Shown piece by piece: positions 300 to 61,887 of a stretch of 64,000 nucleotides of DNA. A program made the position numbers and the translations under genes. The notes below the pieces were generated by a model that saw nothing but the letters and a program-made list of their open reading frames with translations, did no database searches and was not told where the DNA came from. Origin of the DNA: Octopus vulgaris (Eukaryota); NCBI GenBank assembly GCA_951406725.2, contig OX597816.1, positions 166,966,001 through 167,030,000 on the forward strand. Reading direction: 5' to 3'. Position 1 is the first letter of the stretch. Each line of letters begins with the position of its first letter.

Positions 300-655
300 A
301 CATTTGGAACTTGAGAAAAGTCTTGCATATTTTTACTGTTCCCCTCACAGATTACACTTGTAATGTACAAACCAACCGGTTAATTTCTCTTTCTTAAAAT
401 CCCAGTTTATCCAAATTCTCCTTTAAGCACTTACTAACAAAACCTAGTGCTCCAATTATTATTGATATGAATATGAGTTCATAGTCTGGATATAGAAGCT
501 GGAGGTTTTGAAGCAGCTGTCCATAGATATCCTCTTTTTCTTTGATTTTCAAAGAGATATTTATATCTGCAGGGCAGCTGACCCCTATGATAGTACATAC
601 CTTTGCCCCTCTATCCCAAATAACAATATCCAACCTGTTATGTTTACATTTGACA
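300..655 (-). pseudogene. Fragment of non-LTR retrotransposon restriction-like endonuclease (RLE) domain (R2/R4/NeSL-type), C-terminus
   Basis: Translation (KHNR)LDIVIWDRGAKVCTIIGVSCPADINISLKIKEKEDIYGQL...IIIGALG...GTVKICKTFLKF matches the RPD-x-(E/D)VSCP-x-K-x2-EK-x3-Y...IIGALG pattern. It contains a stop and degenerate catalytic residues. Confidence 0.75.
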
Positions 656-705
656 GAGGTTTTGATATATGTATGTATGTAGATGATGGGTTTCTTTCAA
701 TTTCT

Positions 706-20837: not shown

Positions 20838-21109
20838 CTAGACTCACTACCCAGCGTTGCTCGGTAACGTATTCACGGAATTGTTTGCCATTTTGTAGAA
20901 TGGGAATTCACGGTACTTATGCATGTATATATATTTAGCCTAATTTCTAGACTTATTTAATCGGAACTATCCAAACAATAGTAATCAATTTACATGAGTA
21001 GAAGCCGTTTTTTAAAACAATTTTTATCCTAAAAATCACCTGTTACTTTTGTTTTAAAGTGAAAGAGAGGAGAACGTGAAAGATGTATGAACGTGTATAT
21101 GAAATGGAC

Positions 21110-21156
<47 letters not shown>

Positions 21157-21760
21157 CCACTTATACATAAGAACACACACACCACACACACTCTCACACG
21201 TCCATGCACACGTACACAAAAAAGATGTACGACAACGCACCCCTTCACTCTCTCTTTTCTCTCTCTATCTTCCTCCCTCTCCTCCTCTCTTTCACACACG
21301 TCTATTTCATATACACGTACATACATCTTTCATTTTCTCCTCTCTTTCACTTTAAAAATAAAAGTAAATGAAAAATTTTTTTGCAAAAATTAACGAACTC
21401 CGGATGATGAAATCACATTAAGTTAAAAATATTTCTAAATGATTAAAATGTTTTTCTTAAAGAGCGCGAAGACTATGTGTGTGTGTATATGTCACAGATA
21501 GCGGACGTGTGTTTGTGTTGATTGACAAGCCATGACATTCATGTGTGTATTCTGTTTGTGTGTTGACGTCATGGAAGCCATGTATTTTTCGTCAATAAAT
21601 AAAAAAAATTGTGTTTAATCGTTTAAATAGAGGTCCTTGTACTACACTGCCGAAGGTAAGTATGAAAATAAATATGCAAAAAGAATTAAGATAAAATATA
21701 CCATTTCTGAGATATTTCAGTTACACACAAACATCCCTAGAGTTTTAGAATTATCAAGAT
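20838..21760 (-). mobile_element. Helitron-like non-autonomous element (far boundary uncertain) containing an internal inverted repeat 21043-21367
   Basis: Minus-strand 3' end CCGAGCAACGCTGGG hairpin...CTAG|T. The internal IR arms are TAAAGTGAAAGAGAGGAGAA / TTCTCCTCTCTTTCACTTTA. Confidence 0.45.
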
Positions 21761-26661: not shown

Positions 26662-26710
<49 letters not shown>

Positions 26711-26791
26711 TCCCGGGTTGATTCGGGGTTAACCACAGTAAGTAAGGTACTCAATACATAGCAGAGTAAAATTAATTTATTATATAGAAGG

Positions 26792-26842
26792 AGCTTCTAC
26801 AGGACTAGTACTGTTTCATTCAAGAGAAATCTTCAGGAAGCT
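26792..26842 (-). ncRNA. Hammerhead ribozyme at PLE 3' end (left arm)
   Basis: Reverse complement of 34303-34353. Confidence 0.75.
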
Positions 26843-27214
26843 ATTTAACAAGAATTGTATTAGCATTTATACATTTAGAGGAGTGGTGGTGGGGGACTTT
26901 TTGGGGGTAGGCATAGCGCAAAATATCATACTTGGGGGAGTGGTCAAGGTAATAAAAAAAAATAAAAAAATAAAAAATAAAAAAATAAAATAAAAGAATA
27001 AAAATAAAAAATATAAAAAATATAAAAAATATAAAAAATATAAAAAATATATATAAAAAAATATATAAAAAAATATATATATATAAAATATATATATAAA
27101 ATATATATATAAAAAAAGGGGGAAAGAGTTATAGGTAAATAAGGAGATTCTCACTTATACCTATACACACATGTATACGTATCTACACACACATACGCAC
27201 ATACACATATATCT

Positions 27215-27273
<59 letters not shown>

Positions 27274-27732
27274 CCTACACATACACACATACATACATAC
27301 AAATATACATATACATATATATATATACAATCCAATACAGGCCCATTCCCTAATTTTAATTTTATTATCTTCATTTATTACTTTTGTTATCTTTGATCGC
27401 TAAGGCTAAGAATCCTGGCAATAGCTGCTTGTCCGTTTGTCTGTCTACTAGAAGGCAAGTACTCATTCCCGCACGCACACTCATTAGCACGTACATTCAC
27501 CCATTCGTACACTCATACACATACACGTACGCACGCGTTATATTCATACATACAAACATCTACATACGTTCACGTATATACACATACGTACTCGTACCTA
27601 CAGATTCGTGTCTACACTTTAGGAGGCTAGTCTATACATATACACCAATAAATATACATATATATATATATATATATATACCCGCACATACATACACACA
27701 CACACATATATACTCCTACATACAGATACATA

Positions 27733-27772
<40 letters not shown>

Positions 27773-27982
27773 TACGTATATATATACATACATACACATA
27801 CATACACATACACACATACACACATACACACACATACATACACATATATATACATACCCAAACATATATACACACGCATATATATACATACACACATACA
27901 CACATACATACGTATACATACATACATACATCTATACATCCATACTTACATGCATTTATACGCATACACACACCCATCTATA

Positions 27983-28019
<37 letters not shown>

Positions 28020-28296
28020 TCACACATACATATACAAATCTACGCACACACATACATACATACACGTATACGCATACACGCACATACACATATACATGCG
28101 TACCCATACACGTGCACACACGCACGCGCATCCATATAAATACACACACACACATATATATATACACGTGTGCAAGCATACATACATACTCATACGCGCA
28201 CACATACTTACAAATACATATATGCACACACTTACACACATATATATACATACACATATACATGCATACATACATATATGCATACATACACACACA

Positions 28297-28360
<64 letters not shown>

Positions 28361-28703
28361 CACATATACATACATAGACACATATACACATACATACACA
28401 TACACATACGTACACACACATATACACATATATATATATACATATATATATATATACACATATACGCATACATATATACACATATACATACATATACATA
28501 CACACACACATATACATATATACATATACACTGATACACATACCCATACATACACATGCATATACTTATATTACTACATACTCACATTTATAGACATATA
28601 TACATATACACACATACATACATACATGTACATACACATACGCATGCATATATACATATATATACATACATATATATACACATATACATATATATATATA
28701 TAT

Positions 28704-28734
<31 letters not shown>

Positions 28735-28994
28735 TACATATACACATATACATGTATACATACGCAAAAATGATACGCATATATACACATACACACACAC
28801 AGACAGATGCATATACATACATATATATATATATAAACTACATATCTATATAAATACATACATAATACACATATACACACACATATATATACATTCATGC
28901 ATATACATATACAAGTATACAAACACAAACATACACACACACGCGCACACATACATATACACACACACATATACAAATACATACATACACACAT

Positions 28995-29029
<35 letters not shown>

Positions 29030-29716
29030 CATACATACATGTACACATATACATATGTATATATATATCAACAAGGGGGGTAAAGTTAATTAGTTATTAA
29101 TCAATTTCATCAAGTGTTCAGTATGTAAAGGGACCATTATTATTTTGAGTAAACAATGTTAGAGGGAAAAAAATTCTCTAAGTAGTGGAAGAGGCTAAAA
29201 AACTTTATTGGCTGCTATTTCTAGAAAGTTTAGTATGTGGCAAAGTAATTTATTTTATTTTCCTAAGCCCTAATTATATAATATTTTATACATACATACA
29301 CATACATAAGCACATACATTTACACATACATATGCATATACATATATACACATATACATACAAACACATATACACATATACACACACACACACATACAAG
29401 CACATACATATATATATACATATATATACACATATATATACACATATATATATATATATATATACATGCAAACATATATACATATATATTTTTTTACATG
29501 CATACATACACACACACACACATAATACATGCGTATATTCCTACTGTACCCATGCATTTCTATACATATATACATACATACATACGATACACATATACAA
29601 GCGTGCACATATAATATGCGTGCACATATAATATGTGAAAGGTCTTAGGAGAAAAGGTAATCGGGGGTGCTAGGGGAACAGTGGGGTTGGGGGGGGGTTG
29701 TAGGGGGGGGTTGTCA

Positions 29717-30510
29717 TCAATCAGGTTGCCGGGTAGGTCTATAGTTCTTGTAGTTCGCATACTTCTTATGCATACAGTTTGGGGAGTGTTCTGAAAATTT
29801 GTTAAGGAGAGGGCCTTTGGCGAACAAGATCTCTAGGCTCTCTGATATGCATAGGTCACAGCAGGTATGTCCTCCTGTGTACGAGCGCGCCTTCTGTAGT
29901 AGTTTCCACTTGGTCTTGAAGGGGATTGAGTTCCTTTTAAGGTACCAGATGTGGGCGGCGAGGGTAGTTTGGTTGGATTTATCCTGTCGCCGGAGCGAGT
30001 GTGTATGTGCATACCAGCGGGTCTTAAAGCTGTTTGACGTCATTCCAATGTAGGATTTACTTTTATCGTCAAGGCCTGATCTTACCTCGCATTTATATAC
30101 TAGGTCCCTCTGTAGGCAGTTGTTGTTGAGGGGGCAGGTGGTTTTATCATGGCAGTTGCAATTGCTATCGGACGTTGGATGGGCCCCGGAGAAAGTAGAT
30201 ATGTTAAGTTTTTTCACATTGTTGTTGGCTAAGTTCCTGGCTAGGTTGGGCGTGGTAGAGTAGGAGAGTCTAATAGTGTTCTTATTTAGGATAGTGTAGT
30301 ACTTATGTTGGGTGGGGAAGTGTTTCTGTAGGAGAGTGAAAAGATCTTAGCTACAGGTGTAGCGACCTCACGGTTGAAGGGGGGTTATACCAGCTAATGT
30401 GTCTTCGTCTATTTTTCCTGGGTTGGCGTGGGGCTATACTAGTGTAGGTAATCTTATCTTTAAAACCACTGCGGGCCAGGGCCTCGTTGTAATAGGGGGC
30501 TGCGGCTTAA
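29717..30510 (-). pseudogene. PLE polyprotein C-terminus (linker + GIY-YIG endonuclease), left-arm copy
   Basis: Mirror of the + copy, with one amino-acid difference (HSLRR vs HSFRR). Confidence 0.85.
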
Positions 30511-30527
30511 TTACCCGTACCACAAAT

Positions 30528-31455
30528 TACCCGTACCACAAACCAAATGAATCCCTTAGATATATAGATATCAATTCCAACCACCCCAGAAATATATTAG
30601 ATAACCTAGTAAAAAGTGTCTCAATTAGAATCTCTAGCCTGTCCGCCACGGAAGATATCTTTAAGGCCGCAGCCCCCTATTACAACGAGGCCCTGGCCCG
30701 CAGTGGTTTTAAAGATAAGATTACCTACACTAGTATAGCCCCACGCCAACCCAGGAAAAATAGACGAAGACACATTAGCTGGTATAACCCCCCTTCAACC
30801 GTGAGGTCGCTACACCTGTAGCTAAGATCTTTTCACTCTCCTACAGAAACACTTCCCCACCCAACATAAGTACTACACTATCCTAAATAAGAACACTATT
30901 AGACTCTCCTACTCTACCACGCCCAACCTAGCCAGGAACTTAGCCAACAACAATGTGAAAAAACTTAACATATCTACTTTCTCCGGGGCCCATCCAACGT
31001 CCGATAGCAATTGCAACTGCCATGATAAAACCACCTGCCCCCTCAACAACAACTGCCTACAGAGGGACCTAGTATATAAATGCGAGGTAAGATCAGGCCT
31101 TGACGATAAAAGTAAATCCTACATTGGAATGACGTCAAACAGCTTTAAGACCCGCTGGTATGCACATACACACTCGTTCCGGCGACAGGATAAATCCAAC
31201 CAAACTACCCTCGCCGCCCACATCTGGTACCTTAAAAGGAACTCAATCCCCTTCAAGACCAAGTGGAAACTACTACAGAAGGCGCGCTCGTACACAGGAG
31301 GACATACCTGCTGTGACCTATGCATATCAGAGAGCCTAGAGATCTTGTTCGCCAAAGGCCCTCTCCTTAACAAATTTTCAGAACACTCCCCAAACTGTAT
31401 GCATAAGAAGTATGCGAACTACAAGAACTATAGACCTACCCGGCAACCTGATTGA
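30528..31455 (+). pseudogene. PLE polyprotein C-terminus: RT thumb, linker, CxC-x4-CP-x4-C motif, GIY-YIG endonuclease with CxxC...H; two -1 frameshifts in homopolymers
   Basis: YPYHKPNESLRYIDINSNHP...RISSLS...YNEALARSGF...RRRHISWYNPP / FNREVATPVAKI / FTLLQKHFP...NKNTIRLSYSTTPN...CNCHDKTTCPLNNNCL...LVYKCEV...YIGMTSNSFKTRWYAH...CDLCISE...LLNKFSE..CMHK. Confidence 0.9.
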
Positions 31456-32131
31456 TGACAACCCCCCTACAACCCCCCAACCCCACTGTTCCCCTAGCAC
31501 CCCCGATTACCTTTTCTCCTAAGACCTTTCACATATTATATGTGCACGCATATTATATGTGCACGCTTGTATATGTGTATCGTATGTATGTATGTATATA
31601 TGTATAGAAATGCATGGGTACAGTAGGAATATACGCATGTATTATGTGTGTGTGTGTGTATGTATGCATGTAAAAAATATATATGTATATATGTTTGCAT
31701 GTATATATATATATATATATATGTGTATATATAGGTGTATATATATGTATATATATATGTATGTGCTTGTATGTGTGTGTGTGTGTATATGTGTATATGT
31801 GTTTGTATGTATATGTGTATATATGTATATGCATATGTATGTGTAAATGTATGTGCTTATGTATGTGTATGTATGTATAAAATATTATATAATTAGGGCT
31901 TAGGAAAATAAAATAAATTACTTTGCCACATACTAAACTTTCTAGAAATAGCAGCCAATAAAGTTTTTAGCCTCTTCCACTACTTAGAGAATTTTTTTCC
32001 CTCTAACATTGTTTACTCAAAATAATAATGGTCCCTTTACATACTGAACACTTGATGAAATTGATTAATAACTAATTAACTTTACCCCCCCTTGTTGATA
32101 TATATATACATATGTATATGTGTACATGTAT

Positions 32132-32169
<38 letters not shown>

Positions 32170-32429
32170 ATGTGTGTATGTATGTATTTGTATATGTGTG
32201 TGTGTATATGTATGTGTGCGCGTGTGTGTGTATGTTTGTGTTTGTATACTTGTATATGTATATGCATGAATGTATATATATGTGTGTGTATATGTGTATT
32301 ATGTATGTATTTATATAGATATGTAGTTTATATATATATATATGTATGTATATGCATCTGTCTGTGTGTGTGTATGTGTATATATGCGTATCATTTTTGC
32401 GTATGTATACATGTATATGTGTATATGTA

Positions 32430-32460
<31 letters not shown>

Positions 32461-32797
32461 ATATATATATATATGTATATGTGTATATATATGTATGTAT
32501 ATATATGTATATATGCATGCGTATGTGTATGTACATGTATGTATGTATGTGTGTATATGTATATATGTCTATAAATGTGAGTATGTAGTAATATAAGTAT
32601 ATGCATGTGTATGTATGGGTATGTGTATCAGTGTATATGTATATATGTATATGTGTGTGTGTATGTATATGTATGTATATGTGTATATATGTATGCGTAT
32701 ATGTGTATATATATATATATGTATATATATATATGTGTATATGTGTGTGTACGTATGTGTATGTGTATGTATGTGTATATGTGTCTATGTATGTATA

Positions 32798-32865
<68 letters not shown>

Positions 32866-33389
32866 TGCGTGTGTGTATGTATGCATATATGTATGTATGC
32901 ATGTATATGTGTATGTATATATATGTGTGTAAGTGTGTGCATATATGTATTTGTAAGTATGTGTGCGCGTATGAGTATGTATGTATGCTTGCACACGTGT
33001 ATATATATATGTGTGTGTGTGTATTTATATGGATGCGCGTGCGTGTGTGCACGTGTATGGGTACGCATGTATATGTGTATGTGCGTGTATGCGTATACGT
33101 GTATGTATGTATGTGTGTGCGTAGATTTGTATATGTATGTGTGAGTGTGTATATATATATATATATATATATACATATATATAGATGGGTGTGTGTATGC
33201 GTATAAATGCATGTAAGTATGGATGTATAGATGTATGTATGTATGTATACGTATGTATGTGTGTATGTGTGTATGTATATATATGCGTGTGTATATATGT
33301 TTGGGTATGTATATATATGTGTATGTATGTGTGTGTATGTGTGTATGTGTGTATGTGTATGTATGTGTATGTATGTATATATATATGTA

Positions 33390-33431
<42 letters not shown>

Positions 33432-33888
33432 TATGTATCTGTATGTAGGAGTATATATGTGTGTGTGTGTATGTATGTGCGGGTATATATATATATATAT
33501 ATATGTATATTTATTGGTGTATATGTATAGACTAGCCTCCTAAAGTGTAGACACGAATCTGTAGGTACGAGTACGTATGTGTATATACGTGAACGTATGT
33601 AGATGTTTGTATGTATGAATATAACGCGTGCGTACGTGTATGTGTATGAGTGTACGAATGGGTGAATGTACGTGCTAATGAGTGTGCGTGCGGGAATGAG
33701 TACTTGCCTTCTAGTAGACAGACAAACGGACAAGCAGCTATTGCCAGGATTCTTAGCCTTAGCGATCAAAGATAACAAAAGTAATAAATGAAGATAATAA
33801 AATTAAAATTAGGGAATGGGCCTGTATTGGATTGTATATATATATATGTATATGTATATTTGTATGTATGTATGTGTGTATGTGTAGG

Positions 33889-33941
<53 letters not shown>

Positions 33942-34302
33942 AGATATATGTGTATGTGCGTATGTGTGTGTAGATACGTATACATGTGTGTATAGGTATA
34001 AGTGAGAATCTCCTTATTTACCTATAACTCTTTCCCCCCTTTTTTTATATATATATTTTATATATATATTTTATATATATATATTTTTTTATATATTTTT
34101 TATATATATTTTTTATATTTTTTATATTTTTTATATTTTTTATTTTTATTCTTTTATTTTATTTTTTTATTTTTTATTTTTTTATTTTTTTATTACCTTG
34201 ACCACTCCCCCAAGTATGATATTTTGCGCTATGCCTACCCCCAAAAAGTCCCCCACCACCACTCCTCTAAATGTATAAATGCTAATACAATTCTTGTTAA
34301 AT

Positions 34303-34353
34303 AGCTTCCTGAAGATTTCTCTTGAATGAAACAGTACTAGTCCTGTAGAAGCT
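34303..34353 (+). ncRNA. Hammerhead ribozyme at PLE 3' end (right arm)
   Basis: AGCTTC-CTGAAGA-tTTCtcttGAAt-GAAA-CAGtactagtcCTG-TA-GAAGCT: 6-bp stem I, GUA triplet and short stem II. Confidence 0.78.
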
Positions 34354-34364
34354 CCTTCTATATA

Positions 34365-34414
<50 letters not shown>

Positions 34415-34422
<8 letters not shown>

Positions 34423-34596
34423 TAAAAGCAGCAGAGTTTCACGTTCCCGTTCGTCGGACAGTTTTGTTAACGTGAAATTCCGAGTAACAGCTTTTGTTAA
34501 ATTTCTGATGCTTTTAAATAAAGCATATTACTCTACCTCTGGTATTTGAGTACTCTTTTTTCCACCTTGTTTCACATTTATGTGTTTACTCCGGTA
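34415..34596. mobile_element. Short fold-back HHR-like element (CCGACGA core family) between (TA)n; sibling at 59761-59962
   Basis: Shares ACCGGAGTAAACACATAAATGTGAAACAAGGTGGAAAAAAGAGTACTC with 59762 in reverse orientation. Minus strand has CTGT-CCGACGA-ACGGGAACGT-GAAA. Confidence 0.7.
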
Positions 34597-37059: not shown

Positions 37060-37532
37060 TTTTTTTCGTAATGAGATAAAAAAAAAACCCCCAAGGCTGT
37101 GTAGATTTTAGAACATTTATAAATGGAAGGTCTTACAGCTGTTTCTATGATATTTATTATATCCATTCATCGGAGACGGTGTGAGAAGACGGTTAAGCAA
37201 TAGTTAATTTAGATAAGATACGAAAGAGAGAGTGAGGTGGAGATATGAAAATAGATGTGAGATATGCAGGGATATTTTATTTGTAAATCTATTATTTAGG
37301 TAGAATGGGATACATATAAGATTCCAATACCTTATGAGTAAAATCCAATAGTATTTAAAATTGGTCATTTCAAGTTTTTTTCGTAAAGTGTTATTGAATC
37401 AAGGGTTTTATTTAAATAAAACACTTGATTCAATATATAATAAATATCCTAGAAACAGCTGTAAGACCTTCTATTTATAAATGTTCCAAAATCTACACAG
37501 CCTTGGTTTTTTTTATCTCATTACGAAAAAAA
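37060..37532. repeat. ~100-bp inverted repeats (37060-37162 / 37434-37532) with HHR variant at 37130-37177 (-)
   Basis: Minus strand reads GTCT-CCGATGA-atggatat..atatcata-GAAA-CAGCTG-TA-AGAC. Confidence 0.72.
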
Positions 37533-42980: not shown

Positions 42981-43051
42981 TATATATAAATATATATATA
43001 TAAATATATATATATAAATATATATATATGTGCATATATATATATATATAT

Positions 43052-43309
43052 GAAAAAACAAGTCAAGATAGAAAATGCTAAGATAATTTTATAAAGAACA
43101 TTTCAGAGACAGAGAAAGGCAGAAACAAGGAAAATGCTACTTATATTTGAACACTATACAAATATTCCTTTAAAAAAACTTTTCTTTTAATTTTTCTAAA
43201 TTTAATTATTTAATCGTTACAGTTGAAAAGATCTCAAAATGACCGAAACCGGTACTGAAATGTTCTTTATAAAATTATTTTAGCATTTTCTATCTTGACT
43301 TATTTTTTC
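43052..43309 (+). mobile_element. Fold-back element (arms ~43052-43115 / 43255-43309) with U3-A8 HHR variant at 43220-43257
   Basis: CAG-TTGAAAA-GATC tcaaaat GACC-GAAA-CCGG-TA-CTG, with TA-microsatellite flanks. Confidence 0.7.
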
Positions 43310-43345
43310 ATATATATCAACTCGTGTGTTCCTTTTCACCCTTAT

Positions 43346-55339: not shown

Positions 55340-56180
55340 CGAGGGAATCCCAAAAGTAAGGTCCCCAAAAATATTTAGAAATCATAGAAACGTTTATTGT
55401 CAATGATGTTTACACCATTTTAAAGTTTGAAAATTTATCTATTTTACTACATAATCGCCATTTCGGTCGGTGCACTTTTGTAGGCGCGGGGTCAGTTTTT
55501 GAATGCCCATGTCATACCAGCTCACCGCCATGTCATTGGGGAGGCGTTGAACCTCATATTTTACCTCGTCGTCGTTGCTGAAGCGCGTTCCGGCCAAATG
55601 TTCCTTCAACTTAGAGAACAGGTGGTAGTCACTGGGTGCCAAGTCCGTACTATAAGGTGGGTTGCTGTTTATGGTCTTCTGTAAGCATTCATGGGACCCA
55701 GCATGCGCAGACCTTCCGGCAACCCCAGGAACCAAAATGCGGAGATCATCCAGAGTGATCCGCCGATTTTCATGCAGGATTTGCTCAACCTTCACAACAC
55801 TCTCATCGGAAATTGATGGTTGCCCGGTTCTTTCTTCGTCATGAAGACAGGCTGCAAACTGCTTACACCAATTGCAGAGTTTTTGACATCCATGCATGAC
55901 TCGCCACACACTTCCGTTAATTGGTGATGAATTTCAATCGGTTTAATGCCTTTTGCGTTCAAAAACCGATTAACTGCGCGAACTTCACACTTGGCGGTAG
56001 CGACAATCAGGAAGTCCATCAGATACGACTGCCAAGCCAAGACTGAGCGCTGCAGTGAGTCGCGCGCAGCGGCAGGGTTAGGGTTTGCACAATAAACACA
56101 ACAGTGCTGCCATTACCTGCACGCACAGTTTCCCTTGCCTCCTCAGCGCTTTGGAGACCTTACTTTTGGGATTACCCTCG
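55340..56180 (-). mobile_element. Mariner DNA transposon, internally deleted transposase pseudogene
   Basis: TA|CGAGGGAATCCCAAAAGTAAGGTCCCCAAA ... TTTGGAGACCTTACTTTTGGGATTACCCTCG|TA. Motifs EVRAVNRFLNAKG..IHHQLTEV, DEERTGQP, PPYSTDLAPSDYHLF and NGDYV are present, and the DDE core is missing. Confidence 0.92.
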
Positions 56181-59760: not shown

Positions 59761-59764
<4 letters not shown>

Positions 59765-59962
59765 GGAGTAAACACATAAATGTGAAACAAGGTGGAAAAA
59801 AGAGTACTCGAATACCAGTGGTAGAGTAATATGCTTTATTTAAAGCAGCAGAAAATTCAACAAAGCCTGTTACTCTGAGTTTCGCAAAAACTGTCCGACG
59901 AACGGGAACGTGAAACTCAGAGTAACAGGTTTTGTTGAATTTTCTGCTGCTTTAAATAAAGT
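59761..59962. mobile_element. Short fold-back element with HHR variant (59887-59932, +) between (TA)n
   Basis: CTGT-CCGACGA-ACG ggaa CGT-GAAA-CTCaGAG-TA-ACAG, with IR 59834-59883 / 59912-59961. Confidence 0.72.
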
Positions 59963-59999: not shown

Positions 60000-60715
60000 G
60001 AACTGTTACAACTTAGGGAATTGGATATAACTTTGACAGGTTTCGGCCAGTATAGGCCCAGGCCGTGTCTAACTCAATAGCACCACCTGGTGAAGTCTTT
60101 TAGTCATATATGGGGCACCATGGCCCACTCTAGCAAAGAGTTGTTATTGTTGGTGACATATCCGGGTGTAGGAGGTTGGTCCAAGATTTTTTGAAGAAAT
60201 TTGTCCAGTAAACATTTGAATTTTATGGGATCCGTTTCCGTTTTGACGTATTTTAGTATGGTGTTAAAGAGAGCTGGACCGGATGAGGTAAAGTAATTGT
60301 GACGTAATGTTGTTATGTGTCCTGAGTTCGATTTTTGTAGTGGGTGGATAGTACGTGGGCCAAGTCTTGGATGGATGTTAAAATTGATGCCAACATCATT
60401 TGTGCAATATTGATGGAATATTTTCCACATCACACAAATGATGTAGCGCTCCCGGCGGCGCTGGAGAAAGTAGAGATTGAGTTTTTTTAGTCGACCTCAA
60501 TAATCAATGCCTCTCATGCCGTCTATCTTTCTTGTCATTGACCTCTGGAGTGCTTCTACTTTCATAATGAGTTGCTTCGTACGGGGAGACCACAGTGGGC
60601 AACTGTACTCAAGGTGGGATCGGGAAAAAGTAGAGTAGAGAAGGACGATGATGTAGGCATCTCTAGATCGGAAAGTTCTCAGAATCCAGGAGCACATCTT
60701 GCGAGCCAAGTCAAC
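60000..60715 (-). pseudogene. CR1-group LINE ORF2 C-terminal fragment and 3' UTR
   Basis: ARKMCSWILRTFRSRD...LLYSTFSRSHLEYSCPLWSP...VEALQRSMTRKIDGM..*.RLKKLNLYFLQRRRERY...GPALFN, with one in-frame stop. Confidence 0.85.
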
Positions 60716-60723
60716 CTTGCTGT

Positions 60724-60775
<52 letters not shown>

Positions 60776-61887
60776 GCGTTTATTGTGTGTATGTGTGTGT
60801 GTGTGTGTGTGTACTCTATTTGTAGGTTAACAAGGCAACCAACGGTTTCATGTACAGAAATCTTCACAATTGTTCAAACATACCACTAACAACCCACAAA
60901 TAATGAGTATTTATCCACCAATGTGGTTTTGAGCACTCATTCTTACTGCCTGATATTAGCGTATACATACATACATACATCTTGAAGAACCCAATGCTTG
61001 GAGAGAAACAGACATACATTTGTCTTACTCAGCAAATTTTATTTCAATTATTTACACACATACACATACATATATAATACAATACAGTAATTATATATAT
61101 GTGTGTTGTTTAGAAAAAAAGGGGCAGTGTGCATAACGCTTGGATACGAGCCCAAAGAGACATCAATTCTATATCATTGCTAACCTATTAAAGAGATCTT
61201 ACCACTGCCGCCTCAGATATTTGATACACTGTCTTTCAGGATTTCATACCATAATTCTCTTGCATAGAAATTAAAAGATATGCCATCATTTGTCCATACA
61301 AGTGGTAAATGGCGGGGAGAATGTATCGTATTTCTCCAGTCGAGATTTGATTTCAATCTACTCTGAAATTATCAGCTATGCCGCGTAAACTCTCATTCCA
61401 GTACTGGGTGTAGGCTGAGGAGAATTATTATTGTTGTTGCTGCTGTTGTTTTCTCTAGCCCTGGGACAAATCGCATTGAGCGAGCCTATGTTCAAAAATA
61501 TTTCAACCATCACATTTCTGTTGTTTTATTTAAGCTATCTAGGACTATATAATACCCGATGTATTCTTTATTTACTATGTCACAGTGTGACCTGAAATTT
61601 AACTGCTATTTCAAGCATGTCGATTAACCACATAGAGGCTCTCACATTGGCTCTCTCTATATATATTGTGATAGTGCATACATGAGATATCATGCGATAA
61701 ATTGGAATATTCGTAGACATAGGCATGGCTCTGTGGTTAAAAAGTTCGTTTCCCAACCACATAGCTTCAAGTTCAGTTTCACTGCATAGCACCTAGGCAA
61801 TTCTGCTAGGGGATTCGTCAATTACTTTTATACACCCAGGGGGACGAATTGAAAAGTTGACCTCGGCTGGAAGCGAAACTTTTTCTT

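Follow-up and report, generated by a model that had tools for sequence, protein, structure and literature searches.

A palindromic Hydra-clade Penelope-like insertion in Octopus vulgaris with a multi-kilobase, microsatellite-rich 3′ region that is likely part of the element

When kilobases of simple-repeat DNA lie within a retrotransposon insertion, were they retrotransposed with it, and do other copies of the family carry them? The question is raised by a 64,000-nucleotide (nt) stretch of the Octopus vulgaris genome (contig OX597816.1, positions 166,966,001 to 167,030,000; here called the window, in whose coordinates all positions are given), in which a palindromic insertion of a Penelope-like retrotransposon holds a mosaic of TA, TG, and TATG repeats between its open reading frame (ORF) and its terminal hammerhead ribozyme. 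On both arms, the mosaic and the sequences embedded in it, together called the cargo, have the ORF on one side and a genuine Hydra-type 3′ end on the other, and they were very likely copied in this insertion event. The best explanation, to which we give a probability of roughly 0.6, is a head-to-head pair of 5′-truncated Hydra-clade copies in a TA tract, with 2.85 kb of cargo on both arms that likely is a standing part of the family.

The palindrome and its cargo

Self-comparison of the window indicated an inverted match of 26775-30510 with 34370-30661 at 98.8% identity over 3,743 columns. Global alignment of one arm with the other contained 4 substitutions (~0.1%) and 17 indels, 15 of which were homopolymer or repeat-unit count changes and the other 2 dinucleotides inside repeats, and the terminal 176 bp of both arms were 100% identical. 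The palindrome is asymmetric: its 150-bp center (30511-30660) is single-copy, and of the two arms only the left carries an extension, 68 nt long (26707-26774). There is a TTAA/AATT overlap at the inversion junction. Both palindrome ends lie inside pure (TA)n, and the sequence beyond differs between the two sides. A preliminary description made from the sequence alone had recognized a palindromic Penelope insertion with a microsatellite-mosaic 3′ region, mirrored almost base for base and differing mainly in repeat-unit counts; its coordinates were right, and self-comparison and arm alignment bear out both statements. We conclude that the inverted Hydra insertion is real and young-looking. Its parts and immediate surroundings are as follows.

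26665-26706, no strand: left (TA)n target tract, period 2, 20.5 copies
26707-26774, minus strand: one-sided 68-nt tail of the left arm, with hairpin RCTC..GAGYAC from 26767; long 3′ end class
26792-26842, minus strand: type I minimal hammerhead of the left arm, identical to the right one; core at 26836
26843-29716, minus strand: left copy of the microsatellite-rich 3′ region
29717-30510, minus strand: left copy of the 3′ part of the ORF (end of the reverse transcriptase [RT] thumb, linker, GIY-YIG endonuclease), 5′ truncated
30511-30660, plus strand: single-copy center, an additional 150 bp of RT thumb coding; 16-bp unit repeated 2.1 times at 30509-30542
30534-31455, plus strand: 5′-truncated Hydra ORF with RT thumb, CxCx5C linker, and a GIY-YIG endonuclease bearing CxxC and CxH; frameshifted twice, near 30790 and near 30830
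31456-34302, plus strand: right copy of the 3′ region, with a C-rich start, co-oriented TG/TA/TATG mosaic blocks, islands, a T-rich block, and a C-rich end
31879-32097, plus strand: unique island, mirror of 29070-29290
33530-33834, plus strand: island in which unique sequence comes after a strongly decayed microsatellite, mirrored at about 27330-27640
33986-34040, plus strand: small island with a predicted hairpin
34303-34353, plus strand: type I minimal hammerhead of the right arm
34354-34370, plus strand: short 3′ end class; the right arm ends just ahead of the tail hairpin
34371-34415, no strand: right (TA)n target tract, about (TA)22 (left tract, (TA)20)
34416-34594, no strand: adjoining stump-sized inverted insertion of a second Hydra-type family, with the same TA tract and the same one-sided tail

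The same 209-residue frame closes the ORF in each arm, and in the right arm its stop codon at 31455 lies 2,853 nt from the hammerhead core, in agreement with the roughly 2.8 kb of mosaic that had been described between that stop and the hammerhead at 34303. Mosaic is dominant there, but about 30% of the stretch consists of C-rich ends, three islands, and a T-rich block. With a 21-nt mask, TA/TG/TATG mosaic covered 70.5% of the cargo versus 10.5% of the DNA outside the palindrome (56 kb), where the highest value among 507 overlapping segments of equal length was 41.6%. Interspersed repeat made up 0% of the cargo versus 31% outside, and none of the 507 segments was free of it. In the right arm, all seven tracts of at least 60 nt are oriented with TG on the sense strand, and the cargo contains 8 pure TA runs of at least 16 nt, or 2.8 per kb versus 0.5 per kb outside. 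The cargo is composed of layers of very different decay together with unique islands. Among six stretches folded, the island at 33986-34040 gave the best predicted hairpin (z, -3.3; 3 of 200 shuffles were as good). The island at 31879-32097 had no match elsewhere in the window and none above chance level in 78 related Hydra loci, which were drawn from the top 80 among 413 confirmed matches. The possibility that the islands were left behind by nested Hydra insertions was rejected, as they hold no hammerhead, no tail motif, and no meaningful match to the 78 loci.

Clade of the element and its two 3′ ends

The 209-residue protein had 5,780 relatives at an E value of at most 0.001, the full-length ones being about 700 to 760 amino acids long and matched through their C-terminal part. 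Its predicted structure (pLDDT 82.8) was closest in fold, among 48,161 chains, to I-TevI (Z 9.2, rmsd 2.5, 88 aligned residues), followed by T4 EndoII and UvrC. The GIY-YIG domain was not hit by Pfam in this protein, Foldseek returned nothing at an E value of at most 0.001 with its model, and Pfam gave no informative match either on the window proteins or on the relatives. Going by word-indexed protein searches, which yielded 0 of 204 and 1 of 18 candidates, the protein appears to have no close relative on record.

Alignment of 20 sequences indicated that C63, C65, and C71 of a CxCx5C linker were invariant in all 20, as were C163, C166, E169, N182, C191, and H193, which form a CxxC and a CxH motif flanking a conserved E and N. 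The linker motif was present in 71 of the 78 related loci. The RT thumb upstream of the linker was 35 to 54% identical to four relatives; the other RT traits of the clade (RWK and DKT motifs, a divergent RT4(B), and the absence of an IFD) belong to regions that are lost from this 5′-truncated insertion, and in the related loci RW[KR] is present in 55 of 78 and DKT in 64 of 78. Because the invariant residues are the motifs by which the Hydra clade is defined (PMC8557442), the element can be placed on sequence grounds as a Hydra-clade Penelope-like retrotransposon, a placement with which its C-terminal GIY-YIG endonuclease, type I hammerhead, and TA target agree; the core RT is absent from this copy. 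The Hydra families described in that paper, including Hydra-1_Obim and Penelope-13_HM, share with it the C-terminal GIY-YIG, the CxCx5C, CxxC, and CxH motifs, a type I hammerhead near the 3′ end, and a (TA)n target. The 27 Hydra families listed by Craig et al. (2021) are 1.1 to 3.0 kb long, with complete ones of 2.1 to 2.7 kb, and 26 of the 27 prefer (TA)n. In contrast, the 3′ region alone is 2.85 kb here, and a single 5′-truncated arm is already 3.86 kb, so that the element departs from a size below 3 kb, a trait that is descriptive of the clade and not diagnostic.

Other placements were considered and ruled out. Membership in Nematis or Neptune is excluded by a linker that reads CxCx5C and not Cx2-5CxxC and by the lack of a CCHH motif, there being no cysteine pair within the VY-YIG core of the window protein. 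Naiad/Chlamys membership is excluded by a C-terminal endonuclease and the presence of a hammerhead. The element is not Hydra-1_Obim, from which it differs by another hammerhead, by motifs absent from the PMC8557442 supplement, and by a thumb only about 55% alike by eye.

The right hammerhead has a stem I of 6 bp, a short stem II, and a 4-bp stem III with a palindromic loop, with cleavage predicted after GUA, a layout that is the same as in the Hydra hammerheads of the PMC8557442 supplement. It is the minimum-energy fold of its stretch (z, -0.15). Rfam returned nothing at gathering score and no hammerhead hit in the window; its matches by E value, to microRNA and pestivirus models, were rejected because they track repeat composition. 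Viral contigs scanned for related loci contained none.

A hairpin motif, RCTC-N5-20-GAGYAC, located 40 to 95 nt after the hammerhead, followed 50 of 71 cores in the 78 loci versus 0.14% in shuffles, and the passages of the literature that we consulted contain no description of it. Within the window the motif occurs three times (26767, 34530, and 59827), always in a Hydra-type tail. The right arm meets (TA)n 36 nt after the GAAAC of the hammerhead and lacks the hairpin, and the left arm meets (TA)n 107 nt after GAAAC, 62 nt past the hairpin. Both kinds of end were found in related loci: seven of eight ends with no hairpin before the TA tract lay 40 to 78 nt after the core (the other at 143), and six ends with a hairpin stopped 51 to 63 nt past it. 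The tail hairpin motif separates a short from a long 3′ end class and is a candidate signal for two reverse-transcription start sites. In an anole Penelope-like element, the tail matches two such start sites, with cutting and extension of each target strand (PMC11167929). A 5′-truncated inverted copy with a one-sided tail, which is the layout found here, has been described for Penelope-like elements in general (PMC8557442, PMC3846280), and a 5′-truncated inverted copy is noted for Penelope-13_HM (PMC8557442); the tail is 68 nt here versus the 30 to 40 bp quoted for the group.

We note that a second Hydra-type family is present in the window as stump-sized inverted insertions at 34416-34594 and 59763-59961, both in TA tracts and with a one-sided tail. 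Its hammerhead core reads CCGACGA instead of CTGANGA. The stump at 34416-34594 shares only the outer TA tract with the palindrome.

Each arm terminates at one of two 3′ end positions known from Hydra relatives, and the mosaic therefore very likely lies inside the inserted unit, with the ORF on one side and Hydra-type 3′ ends on the other in both arms, which supports what the preliminary description had proposed. Both arms derive from one event with the mosaic in the template, and this holds alike for twin priming and for self-priming, the alternative proposed for such palindromes (PMC3846280). The near-identity of the arms could also come from a fold-back chimeric long read that mirrored a single 3.9-kb copy during assembly, and the sequences in which the indels lie, homopolymers and dinucleotide runs, are also where errors of long reads occur. 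However, two different element-specific ends, each with its own flank beyond, are not where a random chimera would stop, and we therefore consider an assembly artifact very improbable. The asymmetric 150-bp center and the 4 substitutions likewise speak against it, as does the same layout in two stump-sized insertions of the window, in 8 of the 78 related contigs (as inverted matches), and in Penelope-13_HM. Moreover, a lone arm would still carry the cargo between ORF and hammerhead.

Another source of the mosaic would be growth after insertion, in which a short palindrome gained it in place while gene conversion kept the arms alike. Slippage is known to expand microsatellites, palindrome arms can convert each other, and a tenth of the local DNA (10.5%) is such mosaic. 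Nevertheless, the two arms hold identical layers of very different decay and identical unique islands, while damage to the ORF part is limited to frameshifts and the endonuclease has no in-frame stop. Pure-run lengths differ between the arms, which argues that conversion has not kept pace, and we give growth in place almost no weight. We conclude that the cargo very likely arrived with the insertion.

Family trait or capture by one copy

Among related loci, the distance from stop codon to hammerhead was 44 to 515 nt with a median of 146 (54 of 78 loci, 49 distinct), which makes the cargo about 20 times the usual length, although the comparison loci are short-read contigs with about 30 to 40% protein identity and are biased against long repeat-rich ends. 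Left out were 21 loci without a hammerhead core (mostly contig ends) and 3 without an endonuclease end; the value of 322 nt for locus L004 reflects a false core inside a second ORF and does not affect the range. A microsatellite in related locus L010 was rejected as cargo, as it lies in flanking host DNA. Literature searches turned up no Hydra family described as having a microsatellite 3′ region of multi-kilobase size, though Repbase, Dfam, an octopus library, or subscription papers may hold one. We conclude that this multi-kilobase, microsatellite-laden 3′ region is exceptionally long for a Hydra element.

Public sequencing data were examined with 388 words sampled from 30545-34360, in the 24 runs listed when ranked for holding the stretch. 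Seventeen of the 24 (7 studies, one organism) held 51 to 73% of the words, including 11 small runs (57 to 305 million letters, 4 studies; RNA by guess) that held 51 to 63%. Deep runs held only 56 to 73%, which falls short of showing exact identity. Three runs with other organism labels (X18 to X20) had a share of 0.06, near the 6.8% of words that are near-perfect repeat, and so give no evidence of presence; one run held none. The ORF, the first 112 nt after it, and the hammerhead end account for 31% of the arm words, and when chance matches to repeat words were allowed for with Markov null models, a cargo-less element would reach at most 34 to 43% in one model and 37 to 46% in another. The observed shares exceed this ceiling, so that words specific to the cargo must occur even in datasets covering only a small part of a large genome. 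The word shares in small datasets therefore fit, and would favor, a cargo in multiple copies.

The predicted length of a full copy with the cargo is about 5.2 kb, or some two times that of any complete Hydra family listed. For recently active Penelope insertions in O. vulgaris, the average is about 5.5 kb (1,795,539 bp in 329 insertions, our division; PMC13282606, Table 1), a value near the prediction but, as that source does not separate clades, a weak hint at most. We conclude that the cargo is probably a standing, family-wide part of the 3′ region, which each new copy would carry with it.

Several points weigh against this conclusion. The cargo is known here from one palindromic insertion only, and the bias of the comparison loci described above bears on how unusual it seems. 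Three small runs of the same organism held only 1 to 3% of the arm words. The null models were trained on 56 kb, the second on 4.4 kb of tracts, and the margin between the lowest share (0.51) and the highest null value (0.46) amounts to only about two standard errors. Word shares are nonpositional, the RNA labels of the runs were guessed, and transcription of this single locus could also produce such shares. The hammerhead motif had 0 matches in metagenome, prokaryote-genome, and viral collections, as expected if the host is absent from them. Finally, the two frameshifts, which lie in short C and T runs at 30788-30833 and in the mirror of that interval, are identical in both arms and are the only damage to the ORF part. 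Either a defective template was mobilized in trans or a consensus error is common to both arms; the former would suggest a nonautonomous template, which equally fits a one-off source locus.

Such a source locus could have gained 2.85 kb of repeat-rich host DNA by a template jump or by read-through to a downstream stump, in which case only this insertion or a few descendants would carry the cargo. A direct structural precedent exists in the rotifer Adineta vaga, where copies of Pen1_Av hold unrelated captured spacers of 0.9 to 1.5 kb before the 3′ terminal repeat (Arkhipova et al. 2013, PMC3846280), and Penelope-like elements move host DNA between their repeats (PMC3846280, PMC6431247). Hammerhead stumps are common locally, and the islands have no other copy in the window. 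Like Pen1_Av, the octopus element has a long spacer between ORF and 3′ terminal repeat. Unlike the Pen1_Av spacers, which are of unique DNA, differ between copies, and mostly accompany direct repeats, the spacer here is 2.85 kb long, 70% microsatellite, in inverted arrangement, and probably shared. Moreover, the cargo is far from typical of local DNA, motif scans of the window detected neither a residual hammerhead nor a residual tail close to the stop codon, and in four studies the small datasets have word shares above the cargo-less ceiling. Copy-specific capture is the strongest rival reading, though we consider it less probable than a cargo that is standing in the family.

Proposed mechanism and the spread of microsatellites

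A family-standing cargo could be delivered as follows. The element's endonuclease would nick a TA tract, and reverse transcription would start at two sites 68 nt apart at the 3′ terminus of the RNA, by analogy with the anole element (PMC11167929). It would then run through the whole mosaic and 0.8 to 0.95 kb of ORF, and the two truncated products would be joined by the 4-nt overlap. The mirror arm could equally well have arisen by fold-back self-priming. The cargo itself may have grown within the family's 3′ region by repeated slippage. Because both cargo ends are C-rich, we infer that it split an ancestral C-rich stretch of about 220 nt. A seed bias toward TG/TA in Hydra 3′ regions was sought and was too weak: 8 of 49 contained a TG-type run versus 2 with a CA-type run, compared with 4.1 and 3.3 after shuffling.

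The preliminary description had further proposed that the element disperses tracts that are its own preferred targets, a feed-forward route to a microsatellite-rich genome. Its first part is supported, in that the cargo carries TA runs (8 per right arm) and Hydra families almost all prefer (TA)n. Each palindromic insertion is predicted to enlarge the microsatellite content by about 4 kb and to supply some 16 further TA runs long enough to be targets. The element thus likely copies simple-repeat DNA, including TA tracts of the kind its kin prefer as targets, to new genome sites. A major route to a microsatellite-rich genome was not borne out: no other tract in the window could be tied to the family, the cargo contains no nested Hydra tail motif, and the 64-kb window holds no other match to the family's islands or 3′ end despite 46 other mosaic tracts. 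We conclude that feed-forward seeding is plausible but is not demonstrated here. It is doubtful that a recently active Hydra family, delivering a 2.85-kb cassette twice per insertion and self-seeding its TA targets, makes a measurable share of the host's TA/TG mosaic, such that much masked simple repeat would be retrotransposed cargo.

Transposon-borne microsatellites are already known. In penaeid shrimp, recent Penelope copies more than 98% alike take their internal microsatellites with them, and these are elongated later (Yuan et al. 2021, PMC7878876), and in snakes CR1-L3 and Rex long interspersed elements (LINEs) seed microsatellites (Pasquesi et al. 2018, PMC6050309). As in shrimp, microsatellites very likely travel with the element here; the mosaic here is of multi-kilobase size, whereas the relevant passages of the shrimp paper describe none and give neither clade, repeat position, nor target preference. 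As in snakes, the 3′ end of a retrotransposon would spread simple repeats. The snake LINEs, in contrast, bear one short motif at their tail, as shown genome-wide, and the octopus element, seen at one locus, has an internal layered mosaic upstream of its ribozyme that contains the target of its clade.

If the cargo is family-wide, kilobase tracts now masked by annotation pipelines as simple repeats would be parts of a mobile unit, and family size and genome share would be underestimated. The mosaic would interrupt a family consensus built from short reads, and any microsatellite marker located in the cargo would be multilocus. For a repeat-rich animal genome, an element carrying its own preferred target would also offer a countable test of how much microsatellite DNA was spread by retrotransposition versus made in place. 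Arms that are near-perfect over 3.7 kb constrain how mirror copies are built in Penelope-like elements, by twin priming or fold-back. If transcribed, such arms would form double-stranded RNA of great length.

Several minor observations were made. Among the related loci, the Hydra ORF of L010 (3155-4147) extends 330 codons past the endonuclease, the next longest extension being 36, and this copy has an in-frame stop. The extension has H, D, Q, and C motifs and no Pfam hit, and an Atlas feature search matched it to Peptidase_C48 (Ulp1/SENP-like) clusters at 0.94 to 0.97. L010 may represent the fusion of a SUMO-type protease with a Penelope-like element.

Elsewhere in the window, fragments at 55439-56112 (minus strand) resemble a mariner-type transposase (HTH_32 below cutoff). 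Fragments at 60104-60826 and 394-696 (both minus strand) resemble 3′ ends of LINE ORFs; the two pieces scanned had no Pfam hit. A small number of short interspersed repeat families, similar to octopus short interspersed elements, make up about 31% of the window. Self-comparison also detected other short inverted-repeat pairs at 21043-21367, 37060-37532, and 43044-43317, possibly miniature transposon ends.

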